A stretch of DNA of 64,000 bases from Clostridia bacterium. GTDB taxonomy: Bacteria > Bacillota > Clostridia > Oscillospirales > CAG-272. Under the pieces are notes generated by a model. It searched no databases and was not told the DNA's origin. It saw nothing but the letters and a program-made list of their open reading frames with translations. Positions 2,485 to 63,700 of the stretch are shown here, in pieces. Position 1 is the stretch's first letter; every line of letters begins with the position of its first letter. Position numbers and translations under genes: made by a program. The stretch lies in NCBI GenBank assembly GCA_017416185.1, contig JAFQDF010000035.1, forward strand, positions 51,521 to 115,520, written 5' to 3'.

Positions 2485-2515
2485 GAAAATGCATCTGCGG
2501 ATGCATTTTCTTATT
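2485..2515 (+). terminator. intrinsic terminator after thrC
   Basis: Hairpin GAAAATGCATC-tgcg-GATGCATTTTC (11-bp stem) followed by TTATT. Confidence 0.7.
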
Positions 2516-2757
2516 AGATGAATTGAAACCGAAGGTTTCATGAATTGCCTTCGGCATGAATTGGCTTCGCCATGAATTGAAAGCCGTTGGCTTTCATTAA
2601 GGAAGATTTTTGCCTTAGCAAAAATCAATTTCAATTAAATTGCTTTTCGGCATGTCGAAAAGTTACCTTAATGCACCATCGGTGCAATTCATGACGCATT
2701 AGCGTCAATTCATGATGCGTTAGTATCAATTCATGACAGCTATGCTGTCAATTCATT
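2516..2757. repeat. hairpin-string palindromic element, copy A1 (CATGAATTG / CAATTCATG linkers)
   Basis: Four CATGAATTG linkers each followed by a self-complementary insert. Then CATTAAGG, core hairpin GATTTTTGCC-tta-GCAAAAATC, second hairpin CTTTTCG..CGAAAAG and CCTTAATG. Then four self-complementary inserts each followed by CAATTCATG, the exact reverse complement of the left linker. Confidence 0.9.
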
Positions 2758-2775
2758 TCCGAAAGGAGTTTTCCT

Positions 2776-3480
2776 ATGGCACTTTTTGTTCTTGCCGACA
2801 CCCATCTGTCTATAACCACACATAAGCCGATGGATATTTTCGGATCCCGTTGGAAGGACCATACCGACAGAATAAGACAAGAGTGGGAAGCCGTGGTTTC
2901 TCCCGACGACACCGTGGTGATACCCGGAGATATCTCCTGGGGTATGAATTTTGAGGAGGCGAGAGAGGATTTTCTATTCCTTGACAGCCTTCCGGGGCAT
3001 AAGCTTATATCCAAGGGCAACCACGATTATTGGTGGGCGACAAAGAGTAAGCAGGATGCTTTTTTTGAAAAAGAGGGAATAACCACCATAAGCCAGCTTT
3101 ATAACAACGCTTATAAAGTAGATGAATATATGGTCTGCGGCTCCAGAGGCTGGTATAACGATGACCATAACGCACCCAAGGATTCCGACTATCAGAAGAT
3201 AGTCAACCGAGAGGTTGGACGTATGGAGCTGAGCATCAAGGCGGCAAACGATATTGACCCCAAACTTGAAAAGCTGATGTTTCTGCATTTTCCCCCTGTG
3301 TTCGGGGATTACGTATGCGAGGAGATAGTGGACTGTCTTGTGAGCAACGGTATCCGCCGCTGCTATTACGGTCATATCCACGGAAAATATTCCTGTCCTC
3401 CTGTTACAAGCTACAGAGGTATAGATTTTTATATCATTTCGGCGGACTATCTTGATTTCAAACCGATGTTAATTGATTAA
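2776..3480 (+). CDS. metallophosphoesterase (calcineurin-like phosphoesterase) family protein
   Basis: 234-aa ORF with LADTHL, GDISWG, GNHDYWW and GHIHG metal-binding motifs. GAAAGGAG SD lies 7 nt upstream. Confidence 0.8.
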   Translation: MALFVLADTHLSITTHKPMDIFGSRWKDHTDRIRQEWEAVVSPDDTVVIPGDISWGMNFEEAREDFLFLDSLPGHKLISKGNHDYWWATKSKQDAFFEKEGITTISQLYNNAYKVDEYMVCGSRGWYNDDHNAPKDSDYQKIVNREVGRMELSIKAANDIDPKLEKLMFLHFPPVFGDYVCEEIVDCLVSNGIRRCYYGHIHGKYSCPPVTSYRGIDFYIISADYLDFKPMLID

Positions 3481-3578: not shown

Positions 3579-4994
3579 ATGGTAAAAGTAAACAACATTG
3601 AGACCAACAAGGTAGAATTAGAGTTTACTATTGATAAGGAGAGCTTCGACAAGGCGTGTATGGCCGCATATAAGAAGCAGGTAGGTAAGATCCAGATCCC
3701 CGGTTTCCGTAAGGGTAAGGCTCCCAAGTCTATGATCGAAAAGATGTATGGTAAGGGCGTATTCTATGAAGATGCATTAAACGATCTTCTTCCCGATGCA
3801 GTTGAGGCTGCAGTTAAGGAGGCAGACATCAAGGTTGTCAGCGCTCCCGAGTATGATATTGATACAATCGACGAAAACGGCGTTGTAGTTAAGGCTAAGT
3901 TCTTTGTATATCCCGCAGTTGAGCTTAAGGAGTACAAGGGTCTCAAGGCTGAGCGCAACGTAAAGAACGTTACCGCAACTGAGGTAAACGAAGAAGTTAA
4001 GAGAGTTCAGCAGAGAAATGCAAGAACTATCGACGTAACCGACAGAGCGGCTAAGAAGAACGATACAGTCAACATCGACTATGCAGGTTCTGTTGACGGC
4101 GTTCTCTTTGACGGCGGCTCCGCACAGGGTCACGATCTCAAGCTCGGATCCGGCCAGTTTATCCCCGGCTTTGAGGATCAGATCATCGGTCATAAGATCG
4201 GTGAGGAGTTCAACGTAGAGGTAACCTTCCCCGAAGAGTACCACGCAGCTGATCTTGCAGGCAAGGCGGCAGTATTTGCTACCAAGATCAATGCTATCAA
4301 GTATGAGGAGCTTCCCAAGCTTGACGATGAGTTCGCAAAGGATGTTTCCGAATTTGACACACTTGCTGAATATAAGGCAGACGTTAAGGCAAAACTCACA
4401 GAGAGAAACGAGAAGGCCGCTGACGCTGAGGTAAACGAAAAGCTTATGGAGGCTCTCAGAGAGAACCTTGTAGCTGAGATCCCCGCTCCTATGGTAGAGC
4501 GTGAGGCTGAGAATATGGTTCGTGACTACGATACCAGACTTCGTATGCAGGGTCTTGACCTTGCTACCTACTTCAAGTATACAGGTCAGAACCTTGAGTC
4601 TCTGCGCACTCAGTTTATGCCTGAGGCAGAGAAGCAGGTTAAGACCAGACTTGCTCTTGAGAAGATCGCAGAGGTAGAAGCACTTGAGGCTACCGAGGAC
4701 GAGATCAATGAAGAGTTTGACAAGCTTTCCAAGGCTTACGGTGTTGAGGTAGAAAAGGTTCGTGAGCTTGTTGAGGATTCTGCAGTTGCAGACGATATCA
4801 AGGTAAACAAGGCGTTCGAGCTTGTTCGTGCAGAGGCTAAGATCACAAAGAAGAAGGCTGCAGCTAAGAAGACCGAGGCTAAGGCTGAAGGTGAGGAGAA
4901 GGCTGAAGGCGAGGAAAAGCCCGCAGCTAAGAAGACAACTGCCAAGAAGACAACTACAAAGAAGGCAGCTGAAAAGAAGACCGAAGATAAATAA
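3579..4994 (+). CDS. tig: trigger factor with Lys/Ala/Glu-rich C-terminal tail
   Basis: MVKVNNIETNKVELEFTI... matches trigger-factor N-termini, and the FKBP-type segment GFRKGKAP / FIPGFEDQIIGH is present. ATG at 3579 is preferred over the in-frame TTG at 3570 used by the ORF track. Confidence 0.9.
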   Translation: MVKVNNIETNKVELEFTIDKESFDKACMAAYKKQVGKIQIPGFRKGKAPKSMIEKMYGKGVFYEDALNDLLPDAVEAAVKEADIKVVSAPEYDIDTIDENGVVVKAKFFVYPAVELKEYKGLKAERNVKNVTATEVNEEVKRVQQRNARTIDVTDRAAKKNDTVNIDYAGSVDGVLFDGGSAQGHDLKLGSGQFIPGFEDQIIGHKIGEEFNVEVTFPEEYHAADLAGKAAVFATKINAIKYEELPKLDDEFAKDVSEFDTLAEYKADVKAKLTERNEKAADAEVNEKLMEALRENLVAEIPAPMVEREAENMVRDYDTRLRMQGLDLATYFKYTGQNLESLRTQFMPEAEKQVKTRLALEKIAEVEALEATEDEINEEFDKLSKAYGVEVEKVRELVEDSAVADDIKVNKAFELVRAEAKITKKKAAAKKTEAKAEGEEKAEGEEKPAAKKTTAKKTTTKKAAEKKTEDK

Positions 4995-5660: not shown

Positions 5661-6920
5661 ATGGCAAACGAAAGCAATACAAACAATCAGAGCTACCGTT
5701 GCTCCTTCTGCGGCAGAGCAGAAAAGGACGTTATGTTCCTTATTCCTTCTCCCGTAGCTAAGGGTACCTTCATCTGCAACGATTGTGTGGATGCCTGTAT
5801 GGAGCTTTTAGGGGACTATGCTCCCGAGGCAGTAAGAACGGCAGGCGGCGGTAAGCTCACGTACGAGACTCTTCCCAAGCCTACAGAGATAAAGGCGACC
5901 CTTGACGAGTATGTTATAGGTCAGGACGGAGCAAAGAAGGCTCTGTCGGTTGCTGTATATAATCACTATAAGCGCATACTTTCCAAGGATAAAAAGAATG
6001 ATGACGACGTAGAGATCCAGAAAAGCAACGTTCTGCTGCTTGGTCCTACAAGCGTTGGTAAAACGTTTCTTGCCCAGAGTCTGGCAAAGACCCTGCAGGT
6101 TCCCTTTGCCATAGCGGATGCCACTACTCTTACCGAGGCAGGCTACGTAGGTGAGGACGTTGAGAATATTCTGCTTCGTCTTATTCAGGCGGCTGATTTT
6201 GACATCGAGCTTGCCGAGAAGGGAATAATCTATATCGACGAGATCGACAAGATATCCAGACGAAGCGAAAACCGCTCCATCACCCGTGACGTATCGGGCG
6301 AGGGCGTACAGCAGGCGCTTTTAAAGATACTTGAGGGAACTGTTTCCAACGTACCTCCTCAGGGCGGTCGTAAGCATCCCAATCAGGATTTTATACAGAT
6401 CAATACCGAGAATATCCTCTTTATCTGCGGCGGTGCTTTTGACGGTATCTCCGAGATAATAGAGAAGCGTAAGGGCAGCGGCTCTATGGGCTTTGGCGGC
6501 GAGGTGAAGACCAAGCAGGATAAGCAGCAGACCGCAATATACAAGGACGTACAGCCCCACGATATTATGAAATACGGACTTATCCCCGAGCTTGTGGGAC
6601 GTCTGCCCCTCATAGTCGGACTTGAGGGACTTGACCGTGACGCTCTTGTGCGTATCTTAAGAGAGCCCAAAAACTCGCTTATCAAGCAGTACAAGAAGCT
6701 CTTCGGTATGGATAATATGGATATCGAGTTTACCGACGATGCTCTCTATAAGGTGGCAGACCTTGCTATCGAGAGAAATATCGGTGCAAGAGGACTTCGC
6801 TCCATAATGGAGGAGATGATGCTCGACCTTATGTACGAGCTGCCTTCAAAGACCGACGTAACCAAGGTGACGGTGAACGCTGACGTGGTTACCGGTGAGG
6901 GGAAACCCACCGTAGAATAA
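5661..6920 (+). CDS. clpX: ATP-dependent Clp protease ATP-binding subunit ClpX
   Basis: N-terminal zinc-binding CSFCG..CNDC, Walker A GPTSVGKT and Walker [10 protein letters not shown]. Confidence 0.95.
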
Positions 6921-53289: not shown

Positions 53290-53305
53290 ATATAGTATAA
53301 TATAT

Positions 53306-53495
53306 TGAATACACTTTGTGTATTCAGCTAAATTCGCTATGCGAGCTAAATGTGCAGAGCACGCTAAATTACTTCGTAGCTAAATTGACCTTCGGTCAGC
53401 TGATATGCGAATTTAATTTAGCTGTTTCACAGAAACAATTTAGCTATCACGCAAAGCGGGATAATTTAGCTTTGCACGTAAGGGCAAAATTTAGC
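53306..53495. repeat. hairpin-string palindromic element, copy B (AGCTAAATT / AATTTAGCT linkers)
   Basis: Lead hairpin TGAATACAC-tttg-TGTATTCA. Then 4 x GCTAAAT(T) linkers separated by mini-hairpins (TCGC/GCGA, GTGC/GCAC, TAC/GTA, TGACC/GGTCA). Centre AGCTGATATGCGAATTTAATTTAGCT. Then mini-hairpins separated by 3 further AATTTAGC(T) linkers. Confidence 0.85.
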
Positions 53496-53535: not shown

Positions 53536-54429
53536 ATGAAAAAAACAGGTTTTGTCGCAATAGTAGGTCGACCCAACGTAGGTAAATCCACATTGCTTAA
53601 CGCACTTTTGGGCGAAAAAATAGCTATCATATCAAAGAAGCCCCAGACCACCCGTAACCGTATAACAGGTATACTGACCCGAGGCGAAACACAGTTTGTT
53701 TTCCTTGACACTCCCGGTATGCATAACCCCAAGACAAAGCTGGGGGATTTTATGGTAAAGTCTGTTTCCTCTGCCATTGGCGACGTGGATGCGGCGATAC
53801 TTGTAGTCGAGGCGGGCGCAAAGCCCCACGCAATAGAGCTCGGATTGATAGAGAAGTTTAAAAAAACCGATATGCCCGCGCTTCTTGTTATCAACAAGAC
53901 GGATAAATCCGACGCAGGCAAGGTTGCCGAGACGATAAACGAATACGCACCTCTCTATGAGTTTTCCTCTGTAGTTCCGATCTCGGCGCTTAACAATGAC
54001 GGCGTTGATATCGTTCTTAACGAGACGGAGAGCTTTATGGAGGAGGGTGTATGGTTCTTCCCCGAGGATGCCATAACCGACCAGCCCGAACGTCAGATCG
54101 CGGCTGAGATAATCCGTGAGAAGATACTTCGTACCCTTGATGACGAGATACCCCACGGTACTGCGGTAGTTATAGAGGCGTTTGAAGAAAGCTCCAAGCT
54201 TATCAAAATAAGAGCCGAGATATTCTGCGAGAAGGCTTCTCACAAGGGTATCATCATCGGCAAGCACGGTGCGTCATTAAAGACTATCGGTTCCTATGCC
54301 CGTGAGGATATGGAGAAGTTCTTCGGCACCAAGGTATTCCTTGATCTCTGGGTCAAGGTAAAGGAGAACTGGAGAGACTCCAATTTCAATATAAGTAACT
54401 TCGGCTTCAAGGACGATATGGGAGAATAA
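53536..54429 (+). CDS. era: GTPase Era
   Basis: G1 GRPNVGKST, G3 DTPG, G4 NKTD and a C-terminal KH domain. Confidence 0.95.
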   Translation: MKKTGFVAIVGRPNVGKSTLLNALLGEKIAIISKKPQTTRNRITGILTRGETQFVFLDTPGMHNPKTKLGDFMVKSVSSAIGDVDAAILVVEAGAKPHAIELGLIEKFKKTDMPALLVINKTDKSDAGKVAETINEYAPLYEFSSVVPISALNNDGVDIVLNETESFMEEGVWFFPEDAITDQPERQIAAEIIREKILRTLDDEIPHGTAVVIEAFEESSKLIKIRAEIFCEKASHKGIIIGKHGASLKTIGSYAREDMEKFFGTKVFLDLWVKVKENWRDSNFNISNFGFKDDMGE

Positions 54430-60871: not shown

Positions 60872-62128
60872 ATGATCAACAAGAGCTATGAATTAGCAAA
60901 AGAGATCTATGCGGCACAGGGTATTGATACCGATGCTGCGATCGCTAAGCTTAAGAACATTCCCGTTTCACTTCACTGCTGGCAGGGTGACGACGTTATC
61001 GGCTTTGACCACGACGGCCCCCTTAACGGCGGTATCCAGACCACAGGTAACTATCCCGGCAAGGCAACCACTCCCGAACAGCTTATGGCTGATATGGACA
61101 AGGTTCTTTCCCTCTGTCCCGGTACCAAGAAGATCAACGTTCACGCTTGCTACGCTATCTTTGAGGACGGCAAGTTCGTAGACCGCGATAAGCTCGAGCC
61201 AAAGCATTTCGCTAAGTGGGTAGAGTTTGCAAAGGCACACGGCTGCGGTCTTGACTTCAACCCCACCTTCTTCTCCCATCCTATGCAGAATGACGGTCTT
61301 ACCCTTTCCAGCCCCGATGAGAACGTAAGAAAGTTCTGGGTAGAGCACGGTAAGGCTTGTATCCGCATTTCCGAGTATTTCGCAAAGGAAACAGGTATGC
61401 CCTGTGTTATGAACATCTGGATCGGCGACGGCTTCAAGGATATTCCCGCTGACCGTATGGGTCCCAGAATGAGATATAAGCAGTCTATCGAGGAGATCCT
61501 CTCCGAGCCTTATGACTTCAACCTCGTTAAGCCCTGCGTTGAGTCCAAGGTATTCGGTATCGGTGTTGAGTCTTACACTGCAGGCTCTGCAGAGTTCGCT
61601 CTCTCCGTTGTTGCGGCAAATGCCGATAAGTGCATTCCCCTTATGGACAACGGTCACTACCATCCCACCGAGGTCGTTTCCGACAAGATCCCCGCACTTC
61701 TTTGCTTCTTCCCCGAGATCGCACTCCACATCACCCGTGGTGTTCGTTGGGACTCCGACCACGTTGTTCTCTTTGACGACGAGACCAAGGAAATGGCAAA
61801 GGAGATCGTTCGTTGCGACGCTCTTGACCGTGCATACATGGCTCTTGACTACTTTGATGCTTCCATCAACCGTATCTCCGCTTGGACCACAGGCTTCAGA
61901 AGCTGGCAGAAGGCTCTGCTTGCGGCTATATGTACTCCCAACGCAGCTCTCAAGGAGCTTCAGAATGCAGGCAACTTCACCAAGCTTATGGTTATGCAGG
62001 AAGAGGCTAAGATGCTTCCCTTCGGCGCAGTATGGGCTAAGTACTGTGAGGAATGCGGCGTAGCAGGCGACGCTTCCTGGTTTGACGAAGTAGAGAAGTA
62101 CGAAACTGAGGTACTTTCTAAGAGATGA
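60872..62128 (+). CDS. rhaA: L-rhamnose isomerase
   Basis: 418 aa. SLHCWQGDDV, HYHPTE and WDSDHVV motifs of RhaA. Confidence 0.9.
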   Translation: MINKSYELAKEIYAAQGIDTDAAIAKLKNIPVSLHCWQGDDVIGFDHDGPLNGGIQTTGNYPGKATTPEQLMADMDKVLSLCPGTKKINVHACYAIFEDGKFVDRDKLEPKHFAKWVEFAKAHGCGLDFNPTFFSHPMQNDGLTLSSPDENVRKFWVEHGKACIRISEYFAKETGMPCVMNIWIGDGFKDIPADRMGPRMRYKQSIEEILSEPYDFNLVKPCVESKVFGIGVESYTAGSAEFALSVVAANADKCIPLMDNGHYHPTEVVSDKIPALLCFFPEIALHITRGVRWDSDHVVLFDDETKEMAKEIVRCDALDRAYMALDYFDASINRISAWTTGFRSWQKALLAAICTPNAALKELQNAGNFTKLMVMQEEAKMLPFGAVWAKYCEECGVAGDASWFDEVEKYETEVLSKR

Positions 62129-62364
62129 ATTGAACCCTATGGGTTCATAAATTGAGCCTGGCGGCCCATGAATTGACAACTTTGTTGTCATGAATTGTGT
62201 CACAAGGACACATTAAGGAAAGTTTTTGCCTTTAGGCAAAAACAATTCTAATTGAATTAGTTTTCGCCCAAGGGCGAAAAGTTACCTTAATGCACCGTAG
62301 GAGCAATTCATGACCGTAGGTCAATTCATGGTGAAACCAATTCATGGCGAAGCCAATTCATTTA
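62125..62364. repeat. hairpin-string palindromic element, copy A2 (CATGAATTG / CAATTCATG linkers)
   Basis: It has the same order of modules as 2516..2757: 4 linkers + inserts, CATTAAGG, core AGTTTTTGCC..GGCAAAAAC, second hairpin TTTTCGCC..GGCGAAAA, CCTTAATG, then 4 inserts + linkers. The first linker contains the rhaA TGA stop. Confidence 0.9.
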
Positions 62365-63464: not shown

Positions 63465-63700
63465 GAAAGCCGTCCTTCGGGACGGCTTTCACGATATAAA
63501 TCCCTTTCGGGATTTGCGATATTCCCTATGGGGAGCGATATGCCTAACGGCGCGATATGTCCTGCGGGACGTGGGGGGATTTATATCATATCGCGTCTGC
63601 TTTAGCAGATATATCGCTTTTATCAAAGATAAAAATATCGCATTTGACCGAAGGTCAAATATATCGCAATTTGTATCCTAAGGTTACAAATTTTATATCG
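63465..63700. repeat. hairpin-string palindromic element, copy C (GCGATAT / ATATCGC linkers)
   Basis: Lead hairpin GAAAGCCGTCC-ttcg-GGACGGCTTTC. Then 4 x (G)CGATAT linkers with mini-hairpins (AATCCC/GGGATT, TCCC/GGGA, GCC/GGC, GTCC/GGAC). Centre GTGGGGGGATTTATATCATATCGC. Then 4 mini-hairpins separated by ATATCGC, the last linker being the variant TTATATCG. Confidence 0.85.

Follow-up and report, generated by a model that had tools for sequence, protein, structure and literature searches.

Introduction

Repetitive extragenic palindromic (REP) sequences and REPINs are dispersed intergenic palindromic repeats, often set as inverted pairs, and their partner RAYT is an IS200-like Y1 transposase. 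Pneumococcal BOX and neisserial Correia elements are modular sequences between genes, with internal modules that vary in number or identity; they fold strongly and may supply a promoter or influence the genes beside them. Terminal inverted repeats and a TA duplication mark Correia elements, and we know of no partner protein for BOX. CRISPR arrays consist of direct repeats of ~24–40 nt and unique spacers of similar size, usually with cas genes. TRAP, an 11-mer ring, reads (G/U)AG triplets with 2–3-nt spacers on the RNA of the trp leader. The element treated here lies at positions 2516–2757 (copy 1) of a 64,000-nt stretch, called the window below, of contig JAFQDF010000035.1 from a Clostridia bacterium (assembly GCA_017416185.1). 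It is a string of hairpins in which invariant 8–9-nt linkers alternate with mini-hairpins of free sequence, and its family is coupled to genes for a four-helix-bundle (4HB) protein of PF05635/TIGR02436.

To our knowledge no function of the PF05635/TIGR02436 family has been described beyond the role of Avd in diversity-generating retroelements. Pentameric rings are known from two members: the S23p of Xanthomonas forms a homopentameric toroid (PMC4990558), and Avd, which works on nucleic acid, forms a positively charged barrel of five subunits (PMC6182149). As a parallel in the literature, three or four tandem heptamers stand just upstream of the S23p open reading frame (ORF) in the Coxiella intervening sequence (IVS) (PMC4990558). 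Family members that carry the 4HB gene (master copies; loci are cited by L numbers) resemble the 23S rRNA IVS in having the same gene family between long inverted repeats and a possible stem; a PF05635 ORF enclosed by inverted repeats was found in L242, L244, L264 and L312, not in the window copy. They differ from the IVS in lying outside rRNA, in having hairpin-strings in place of a plain 28-bp stem, and in that gene-less copies are scattered between protein-coding genes; no copy that was read interrupts a 23S rRNA helix, and the window gave no rRNA match. Avd belongs to the same Pfam family, PF05635; here, however, the 4HB gene is paired with hairpin-string arrays, and no reverse transcriptase gene, template or variable repeats were present in the loci read, the flanks (±1.5 kb) of 80 4HB loci having been screened only for arrays and rumA.

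With REP/REPIN–RAYT the family shares dispersed, often inverted palindromic repeats between genes, a single-copy, vertically inherited partner gene flanked by repeats, and a repeat type that co-varies with the partner clade, several orthogonal types per genome being possible. It differs in the partner, a 117-aa four-helix bundle (PF05635) instead of a Y1 transposase, and in what is conserved: in REPs this is the palindrome itself, here it is the linker, the copies of the window and of the related genome RGIG1815 having the same linkers and hairpins of different sequence and length. Arrays moreover hold 4–5 units, have no GTAG motif and lie on ribosome-binding sites. No RAYT gene flanked by repeats was found by clustering of 372 neighbouring ORFs; no HMM search aimed at Y1 transposases was made. 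In place of the terminal inverted repeats and target-site duplication of a miniature inverted-repeat transposable element (MITE) there are inverted array halves and no duplication; the core of the window copy is that of a master copy minus the gene, as in the derivation of a MITE, but this gene encodes a four-helix bundle without known transposase activity. The likeness to TRAP concerns the working model set out below (oligomeric ring, one short word per subunit, leader beside a ribosome-binding site); the words are longer here (8–9 nt), the spacers are hairpins, the arrays form inverted pairs, and binding is putative. BOX and Correia elements have no sequence relation to the family, and neither has invariant linkers with free hairpins. 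From CRISPR arrays the element is set apart by repeats of 8–9 nt, 'spacers' that are palindromes of 7–15 nt, and the inverted pairing of arrays.

The first-pass annotation, made from the letters of the window alone, did not recognise the element as REP/BIME, a MITE or an Rfam family, and this was borne out by these features and by Rfam searches: the window gave no match at gathering score, region 2400–2850 gave only chance-level matches at E up to 10, and seven loci covering linker types 1–4 gave only a tRNA. No description of the linker word, of the pairing of PF05635 with hairpins or of the element was found in the literature searched; the linker word matched only primers, and the papers found on REPIN/RAYT dealt with the RAYT system alone. 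Judged from sequence comparison, a hairpin-string with a cognate 4HB protein would be a categorically new system, its binding step being putative.

Results and Discussion

Layout, folding and covariation

The layout reported for copy 1 was confirmed: four ATGAATTG linkers (X array), a two-hairpin core and four CAATTCAT linkers (Y array), with self-complementary inserts between them (Table 1). The linkers were as annotated, except that the first left one reads gATGAATTG, not CATGAATTG. The inserts of the X array are, in order, AAACCGAAGGTTT, CCTTCGG, GCTTCGC and AAAGCCGTTGGCTTT. The description as a structured, two-fold symmetric repeat, with 2516–2757 as reference copy and further copies elsewhere, likewise held. 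CATGAATTG was counted 11 times in the window (0.58 expected; reached in 0 of 100 shuffles), always in one of two clusters. Outer hairpin H0, between thrC and the first linker, is part of the conserved block; a TG..CA-closed outer hairpin stands at the equivalent place in other family members.

Folding of both strands, as proposed by the annotation, gave z = −8.3 (plus) and −6.5 (minus) for copy 1 and −9.9 and −8.7 for copy 2, the second copy of the same subtype in the window, in comparison with shuffles. Perfect hairpins with a loop of at most 5 nt were formed by 238 of 296 unique inserts (80%) and by 6% of shuffled inserts. A formal covariation test was run on 15 copies of the window subtype, with 500 shuffles and slid partners as controls. 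Paired cells amounted to 89.5% (shuffles, 72.7%; slid partners, 34–45%), changes on both sides were found in 38 of 65 pairs, none of the 500 shuffles reached the observed measures, and all eleven helices were supported by covariation. Inserts that are not self-complementary had been named beforehand as the finding that would tell against the element; family-wide the inserts were found to be self-complementary by preference, and they covary as hairpins.

As an alternative to the string, a long stem with stacked four-way junctions had been suggested, in which left and right linkers pair. Over 30 elements, only 5 of 116 deviating linker positions were compensated in the presumed partner, against 111 that were not; Y2, for example, reads GAAATCATG in 26 of 30 elements with X3 unchanged. 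Since the left–right pairing of linkers is not maintained, a ladder of four-way junctions is unlikely, and this candidate was rejected.

Partner gene

Among the 372 ORFs within 1.2 kb of arrays, a protein of ~117 aa was the top recurrent neighbour. It matched PF05635 ("23S rRNA-intervening sequence protein", E 3e-26) and TIGR02436 ("four helix bundle protein"); its closest solved relative is PDB 2RLD (E 2.8e-38; five chains in the entry), and PADLOC gave no defence-system match for it. A RAYT or another transposase as partner was rejected, because the only neighbours that recurred in the clustering were PF05635 and a rumA-type methyltransferase.

For the reverse test 80 loci were chosen by the 4HB protein alone, of which 75 had enough upstream sequence; a full element was found within 300 nt upstream of the 4HB gene in 55 of these 75. 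Every type-1-clade locus with enough flank carried arrays, in the order X-Y-gene, X-gene-Y (L242, L244, L264) or Y-gene-X (L241, L248, L251, L262). No array, in contrast, was found in 80 thrC loci of relatives (480 kb). In the canonical form the ATG follows the end of the last linker by 14–17 nt. Neither this partner gene nor the relation between master copies and gene-less copies (satellites) had been seen by the first-pass annotation.

The 4HB protein is 85–98% identical (aa) among the loci, where rumA is only 35–65% identical; third positions of synonymous 4HB codons are only 45–69% identical. High protein identity together with such low synonymous identity indicates that the linkage is old and vertical and that constraint has been very strong; a recent horizontal acquisition of the 4HB gene, considered as another candidate, was rejected on the same synonymous positions.

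A rumA-type 23S rRNA methyltransferase gene borders the unit in 38 of the 80 loci. It usually lies upstream of the unit, but in L246, L250 and L258 it follows the 4HB gene. The outer hairpin at rumA loci consists of the last rumA codons and their inverted copy. In L073, L088, L093, L202, L227 and L230 the end of the methyltransferase (GHVExVVCLxR) is followed by its own reverse complement, the perfect hairpin so formed abutting the first linker; it reaches 17–18 bp in L202 and L093, and the tail of the ORF (..DNEL) is read from hairpin arm and linker. In L272 (1219–1292) and upstream of the 4HB gene in L028, a tRNA gene with its terminator hairpin immediately precedes a master copy of another type.

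Linker word and protein clade

Seven 4HB clades were found with one order of parts (an X array of four linkers and their mini-hairpins, a centre, a Y array of about four linkers, ribosome-binding site, gene) and a linker word of its own in each: CATGAATTG in type 1; CATGATTTG in type 1b (L262); TTGAAAT in type 2 (L267–L271, L273, L276, L278, L280); AGCTAAATT in type 3 (L272, L275, L277); GTGAAGTT in type 4 (L266); and ATATCGA (L094) and TATATCATCA (L028) in two further types. Types 2 and 3 are separate protein clades (identity 0.77 and 0.85 within the type, 0.53–0.62 between types). One metagenome-assembled genome (MAG) holds 4HB genes of both type 1 and type 2 (L201, L271). That the linker word changes with the 4HB gene suggests that the protein binds the repeats; this co-variation of clade and word is the strongest argument for recognition of the linkers by the protein.

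Master copy and satellites

A scan for the core words of the window gave 12 copies on 12 contigs of one MAG, Clostridia bacterium RGIG1815, a congener of the window organism (88–91% nucleotide identity over kilobases). RGIG1815 holds one master copy (L264) and at least 12 gene-less copies of the window type; L312 is the orthologous master copy from a second sample. Thus a PF05635 gene of the matching clade that carries the array was found in RGIG1815 (L264 with its 12 satellites) and in L312. Both read X-CATTAAGG-hairpinA-[PF05635 gene]-hairpinB-CCTTAATG-Y, with the 4HB gene exactly at the position of the AT-rich centre of the window core.

L297 of RGIG1815 is the orthologue of copy 1 and L303 that of copy 2. 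Copy 1 and L297 show 5 differences in 241 nt (98% identity; flanks 88%), all of them in loops, unpaired positions and one linker; H0 in L297 has a compensatory change from T:A to C:G. Copy 1 is under purifying selection. L303 agrees with copy 2 in its flanks and its three outer right hairpins, but has other hairpins in place of X array, core and h5. Since the window core is the master core minus the gene and the site is kept in RGIG1815, copy 1 is a gene-less satellite; the comparison of the two genomes indicates that it already stood at this site in the common ancestor of the two species, has stayed there and swaps modules with its sister copies. In L118, a relative of 75% nucleotide identity, the gene order is the same, the element is absent, and an unrelated 250-nt spacer stands in its place; no clean empty site was found. 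No target-site duplications were seen at 11 copies aligned side by side, nor at the two window copies.

In a strain variant, L200 (1–300; Logan SRR12529393), the right part of copy 1 is unchanged, as is the metallophosphoesterase gene. Its three outer left hairpins and the gene upstream are not those of the window, which implies a rearrangement with its breakpoint at a linker.

A gene-less copy equal to the master minus its gene, at least 12 dispersed copies in one MAG and the absence of the element from the thrC locus of L118 (75% nucleotide identity) are traits that a REPIN- or MITE-like non-autonomous mobile element would show. X-[gene]-Y would then be its autonomous form, the 4HB protein would promote copying alone or with host enzymes, and regulation of neighbouring genes would be incidental. 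We hold this, the main rival of the reading preferred below, to be unlikely, since no target-site duplications occur at the 11 copies, the protein has no recognisable nuclease or recombinase fold (it matches only PF05635/TIGR02436), and no transposase recurs among the neighbouring genes. Mobility would also agree with the X arrays duplicated around the Y-gene segment (L239, L243, L227), the tandem unit in L202, the mosaic exchange of hairpin modules between copies and the many arrays at contig ends, and the single-copy, vertically inherited partner gene mirrors RAYT–REPIN systems; however, both window copies stand at orthologous sites across ~88–91% identity, copy 1 being 98% conserved, and the constant placement at ribosome-binding sites suggests selected positions. 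Mobility and docking of a protein to the arrays, discussed below, are not mutually exclusive.

Position at translation starts

An ORF start preceded by a ribosome-binding site was found within 80 nt of one end in 45% of full elements (~10% at random positions), the modal distance being 14–21 nt. Behind the last linker of copy 1 stands the terminal mini-hairpin, the 3' arm of which is the Shine-Dalgarno sequence of the metallophosphoesterase gene (ATG at 2776); the same end, 'CAATTCAT TCC-GNA-GGAG ... ATG', recurs in L297, L298, L302 and L308. In solo X arrays the word CATT..AGG overlaps the Shine-Dalgarno sequence of the next gene. The earlier description placed the element downstream of thrC and missed that its link is to the ribosome-binding site downstream, not to thrC.

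In 16 of 215 arrays, which make up a subfamily, TGnTATAAT stands exactly 20 nt upstream of the first linker. In a lenient terminator scan the core hairpins and h8 passed (3 against 0.6 expected), with interrupted tails (AATTTCAATT); core hairpins A and B have weak terminator scores on opposite strands. H0 (2486–2509) with TTTTCTTATT resembles a real terminator more than they do.

These data bear on a protein-independent RNA structure in an intercistronic or 5' leader position, which would act as exonuclease block, as insulation of the ribosome-binding site or as weak bidirectional terminator. The location of the element between genes of one orientation, just ahead of the ribosome-binding site that follows, and the weak terminator scores of the core hairpins on both strands agree with it, as do the strongly negative folding energy and the copies that start right after TGnTATAAT, the RNA of which would open with a stem-loop. 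Such a structure leaves unexplained, however, why single-stranded linkers are invariant and stems free, why the linker word switches with the 4HB clade, why there are four linkers per array and why X and Y loops are exactly complementary; it is considered very unlikely.

Proposed mechanism

The reading preferred here, held at about even confidence from sequence comparison, is that the element may be a multivalent, type-specific docking array for the cognate 4HB protein. The linkers would be sequence-specific contacts for a ring-shaped, probably pentameric PF05635/TIGR02436 protein, one linker per subunit; the mini-hairpins would serve as sequence-free spacers that fold the intervening strand away and place successive linkers side by side. 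The displaying strand could be an mRNA leader or DNA hairpins extruded from the duplex. By analogy with the pentameric relatives (S23p, Avd and 2RLD with its five chains) it is plausible that four linkers and the degenerate fifth match the subunits of such a ring. On the master copy, binding would give feedback on the protein's own gene; the location of the master directly upstream of or around this gene, with the last linker 14–17 nt before the ATG, fits autoregulation. Satellites such as 2516–2757 would bring neighbouring start regions under the same protein; copy 1, on the ribosome-binding site of the metallophosphoesterase gene, could place this gene under the influence of the 4HB protein.

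In a wider form, to which we give slightly less than even weight, PF05635/TIGR02436 rings might be mutually orthogonal recognition systems, several per genome, each with its own 8–9-nt word shown 4–5 times on mini-hairpins. Each system would consist of one master copy at the gene of its protein and of satellites at the ribosome-binding sites of further genes, and such sets would form small regulons or long-lived intragenomic replicators without a transposase. Proteins of PF05635/TIGR02436 are very common in bacteria, and the pairing of clade and word offers a concrete candidate ligand for them.

Several observations weigh against docking of the 4HB protein as set out here. The window itself, searched over its 64 kb, contains no 4HB gene, and the master copy is known from the congeneric MAG and another sample, not from the genome of the window. 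For the GCGATAT type, a further linker type of the window (Table 1), no 4HB gene was adjacent in ~7 metagenomic copies. We know of no PF05635 protein with demonstrated sequence-specific binding of nucleic acid. A pentamer is not a natural fit to the two-fold symmetry of the whole element, and the co-variation and coupling would be equally expected from a mobilising partner, as in RAYT–REP. Finally, X and Y are reverse complements, so that one RNA-binding surface cannot read both on a single transcript; this leads towards DNA or a two-strand logic, which fits the position at ribosome-binding sites less well.

RNA or DNA as the folded strand

The claim that the element is complementary only as plus-strand RNA was not upheld; it rested on a single G-U pair. 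Family-wide, G-T and A-C mismatches on the sense strand stand at 22:10 in left (X) arrays and 9:9 in right arrays, and G-T pairs are rare (~3% of stem pairs). The loops of Y arrays (GNA/GNNA) are exact reverse complements of those of X arrays (TTC/GAA, TGC/GCA, TAC/GTA, GTT/AAC). Most frequent among the inserts are the DNA mini-hairpin words GCGN(N)AGC and CCGN(N)AGG: read on the CAATTCATG strand they account for 104 of the 269 short inserts, read on the other for none. For d(GCGAAGC) a Tm of 76.5 °C has been reported, against only 39 °C for r(GCGAAAGC), and DNA motifs of this kind occur in single-strand initiation sites and in the hairpin promoters of phage N4 (PMC13037366).

The leader or co-directional intergenic location, the promoter directly upstream of some copies, the Shine-Dalgarno sequence inside the last hairpin and the weak G-T excess in X arrays point to RNA. 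The inversion of one module into X and Y, the complementary loops, the mini-hairpin words and the scarcity of G-T pairs point to DNA. If RNA is read, the element would represent a new class of leader; if DNA mini-hairpins are read, the d(GCGNAGC) motif would here be used in a chromosome.

A signal at the level of DNA, given by extruded or single-stranded mini-hairpins (a priming or initiation site, or a hairpin promoter) and read on the GNA-loop strand (bottom in the left half, top in the right), would draw on the strand bias of the mini-hairpin words (104/269 on the CAATTCATG strand, 0 on the other), the stability of d(GCGAAGC) and the occurrence of its motif at initiation sites and N4 promoters (PMC13037366), the inversion of a single module into the two halves and the few G-T pairs (~3%). 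It is regarded as quite improbable: no primase, replication or phage context was seen around the copies, and the elements lie on chromosomes, in association with ribosome-binding sites and with the start of the 4HB gene. It can be merged with the docking array, the 4HB protein then acting on the DNA form.

Feature coordinates and further elements of the window

Table 1: Coordinates of copy 1, its flanking hairpins and the other hairpin-string elements of the window.
Feature	Positions	Strand	Remarks
Outer hairpin H0 (aaaatgcatc-tgcg-gatgcatttt)	2486..2509	+	terminator-like, directly 3' of thrC stop codon
X array	2518..2579	+	four ATGAATTG linkers: 2518-2525, 2540-2547, 2556-2563, 2572-2579
X-array mini-hairpins	h1 2526-2538; h2 2548-2554 (CCTTCGG); h3 2564-2570 (GCTTCGC)	+	covariation
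Hairpin h4	2580-2594	+	covariation (helix 5)
Degenerate fifth linker CATTAAGG	2595-2602	+	directly after h4
Core hairpin A	2605-2626	.	covariation (helices 6-7 = A, B)
Core AT-rich centre, 16 nt	2627-2642	.	place of 4HB gene in master copies
Core hairpin B	2643-2662	.	covariation (helices 6-7 = A, B)
Right core word CCTTAATG	2666-2673	+	start of Y array (2666..2756)
Y array, four CAATTCAT linkers	2685-2692, 2706-2713, 2727-2734, 2749-2756	+	read in sequence
Y-array hairpins	h5 2674-2684; h6 2694-2705; h7 2715-2726; h8 2736-2748	+	covariation (helices 8-11)
Terminal mini-hairpin TCC-GAAA-GGA	2758-2767 (part 2758..2778)	+	holds Shine-Dalgarno GGAG 2765-2768
Other-type element, linkers AGCTAAATT / AATTTAGCT	53296..53495	+	TATAAT 53296-53301, outer hairpin 53307-53325, arrays 53326-53495
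Copy 2, type 1, subtype as copy 1	62125..62361	+	start inside rhaA stop codon (TGA 62126-62128)
Further-type element, linkers GCGATAT / ATATCGC	63466..63700	+	directly after SIS-domain gene

Copy 2 has the linkers and core words of copy 1; its inserts differ yet still fold, and its end is 40 nt upstream of the SIS-domain gene (62402). Two elements with other linker words had been missed in the first-pass annotation. The AGCTAAATT element is 40 nt upstream of an Era-like GTPase ORF (53536–54429), and its word is also found upstream of the separate 4HB clade of L272, L275 and L277. More copies of the GCGATAT arrays were found in metagenomes, L333 having three in 11.6 kb; a one-base variant of this word (TCGATAT / ATATCGA) flanks a distant 4HB gene in L094.

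Spread and arrangement of the family

A scan for three linkers in a row, with one genome per species, gave at least 117 stretches; among the matches listed, almost all were from uncultured gut and rumen Clostridia (Oscillospiraceae, Acutalibacteraceae, Christensenellales and related groups). The repeat family is widespread in uncultured Oscillospirales and Christensenellales. Identical linkers, nearly always four and sometimes five per array, alternate with mini-hairpins of free sequence, and three forms occur: inverted pairs (X then Y, as in the window), single arrays and outward-facing pairs. With its invariant linkers and free hairpins this is a new kind of bacterial repeat. It is found where translation of ordinary genes begins, tends to escape repeat finders and covariance-model libraries, and breaks metagenome assemblies; many arrays were found at contig ends.

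Hairpin cassettes such as TATCCTTCGGATA and GGCAAAGC recur in varied combinations among the copies; it is proposed that copies swap hairpin modules via recombination at the linkers. In L239, L243 and L227 (~position 1500) identical X arrays with promoter and outer hairpin stand on both sides of the segment of Y array and 4HB gene; in L202 (~position 1500) the entire unit is a tandem duplicate with two 4HB genes. The duplicated arrays of these four loci suggest unequal recombination or an integration mechanism at the arrays.

L052 (1–4000) has four single type-1 arrays ~1 kb apart in one orientation, a cassette-like layout, each flanked by small hypothetical genes of the opposite strand. Two of the four are followed by type-4 (GTGAAGTT) arrays (775–850 and 3880–3929), and more type-4 arrays lie at 20–71 and 6685–6735. 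With a phage origin in mind, viral contigs were searched; of the 14 matches about 8 were true arrays, and a 4HB gene accompanied none of them; among the contigs classed as viral, L284 (IMG/VR, 5.1 kb) carries four type-1 arrays in 5 kb, with no 4HB gene on the contig.

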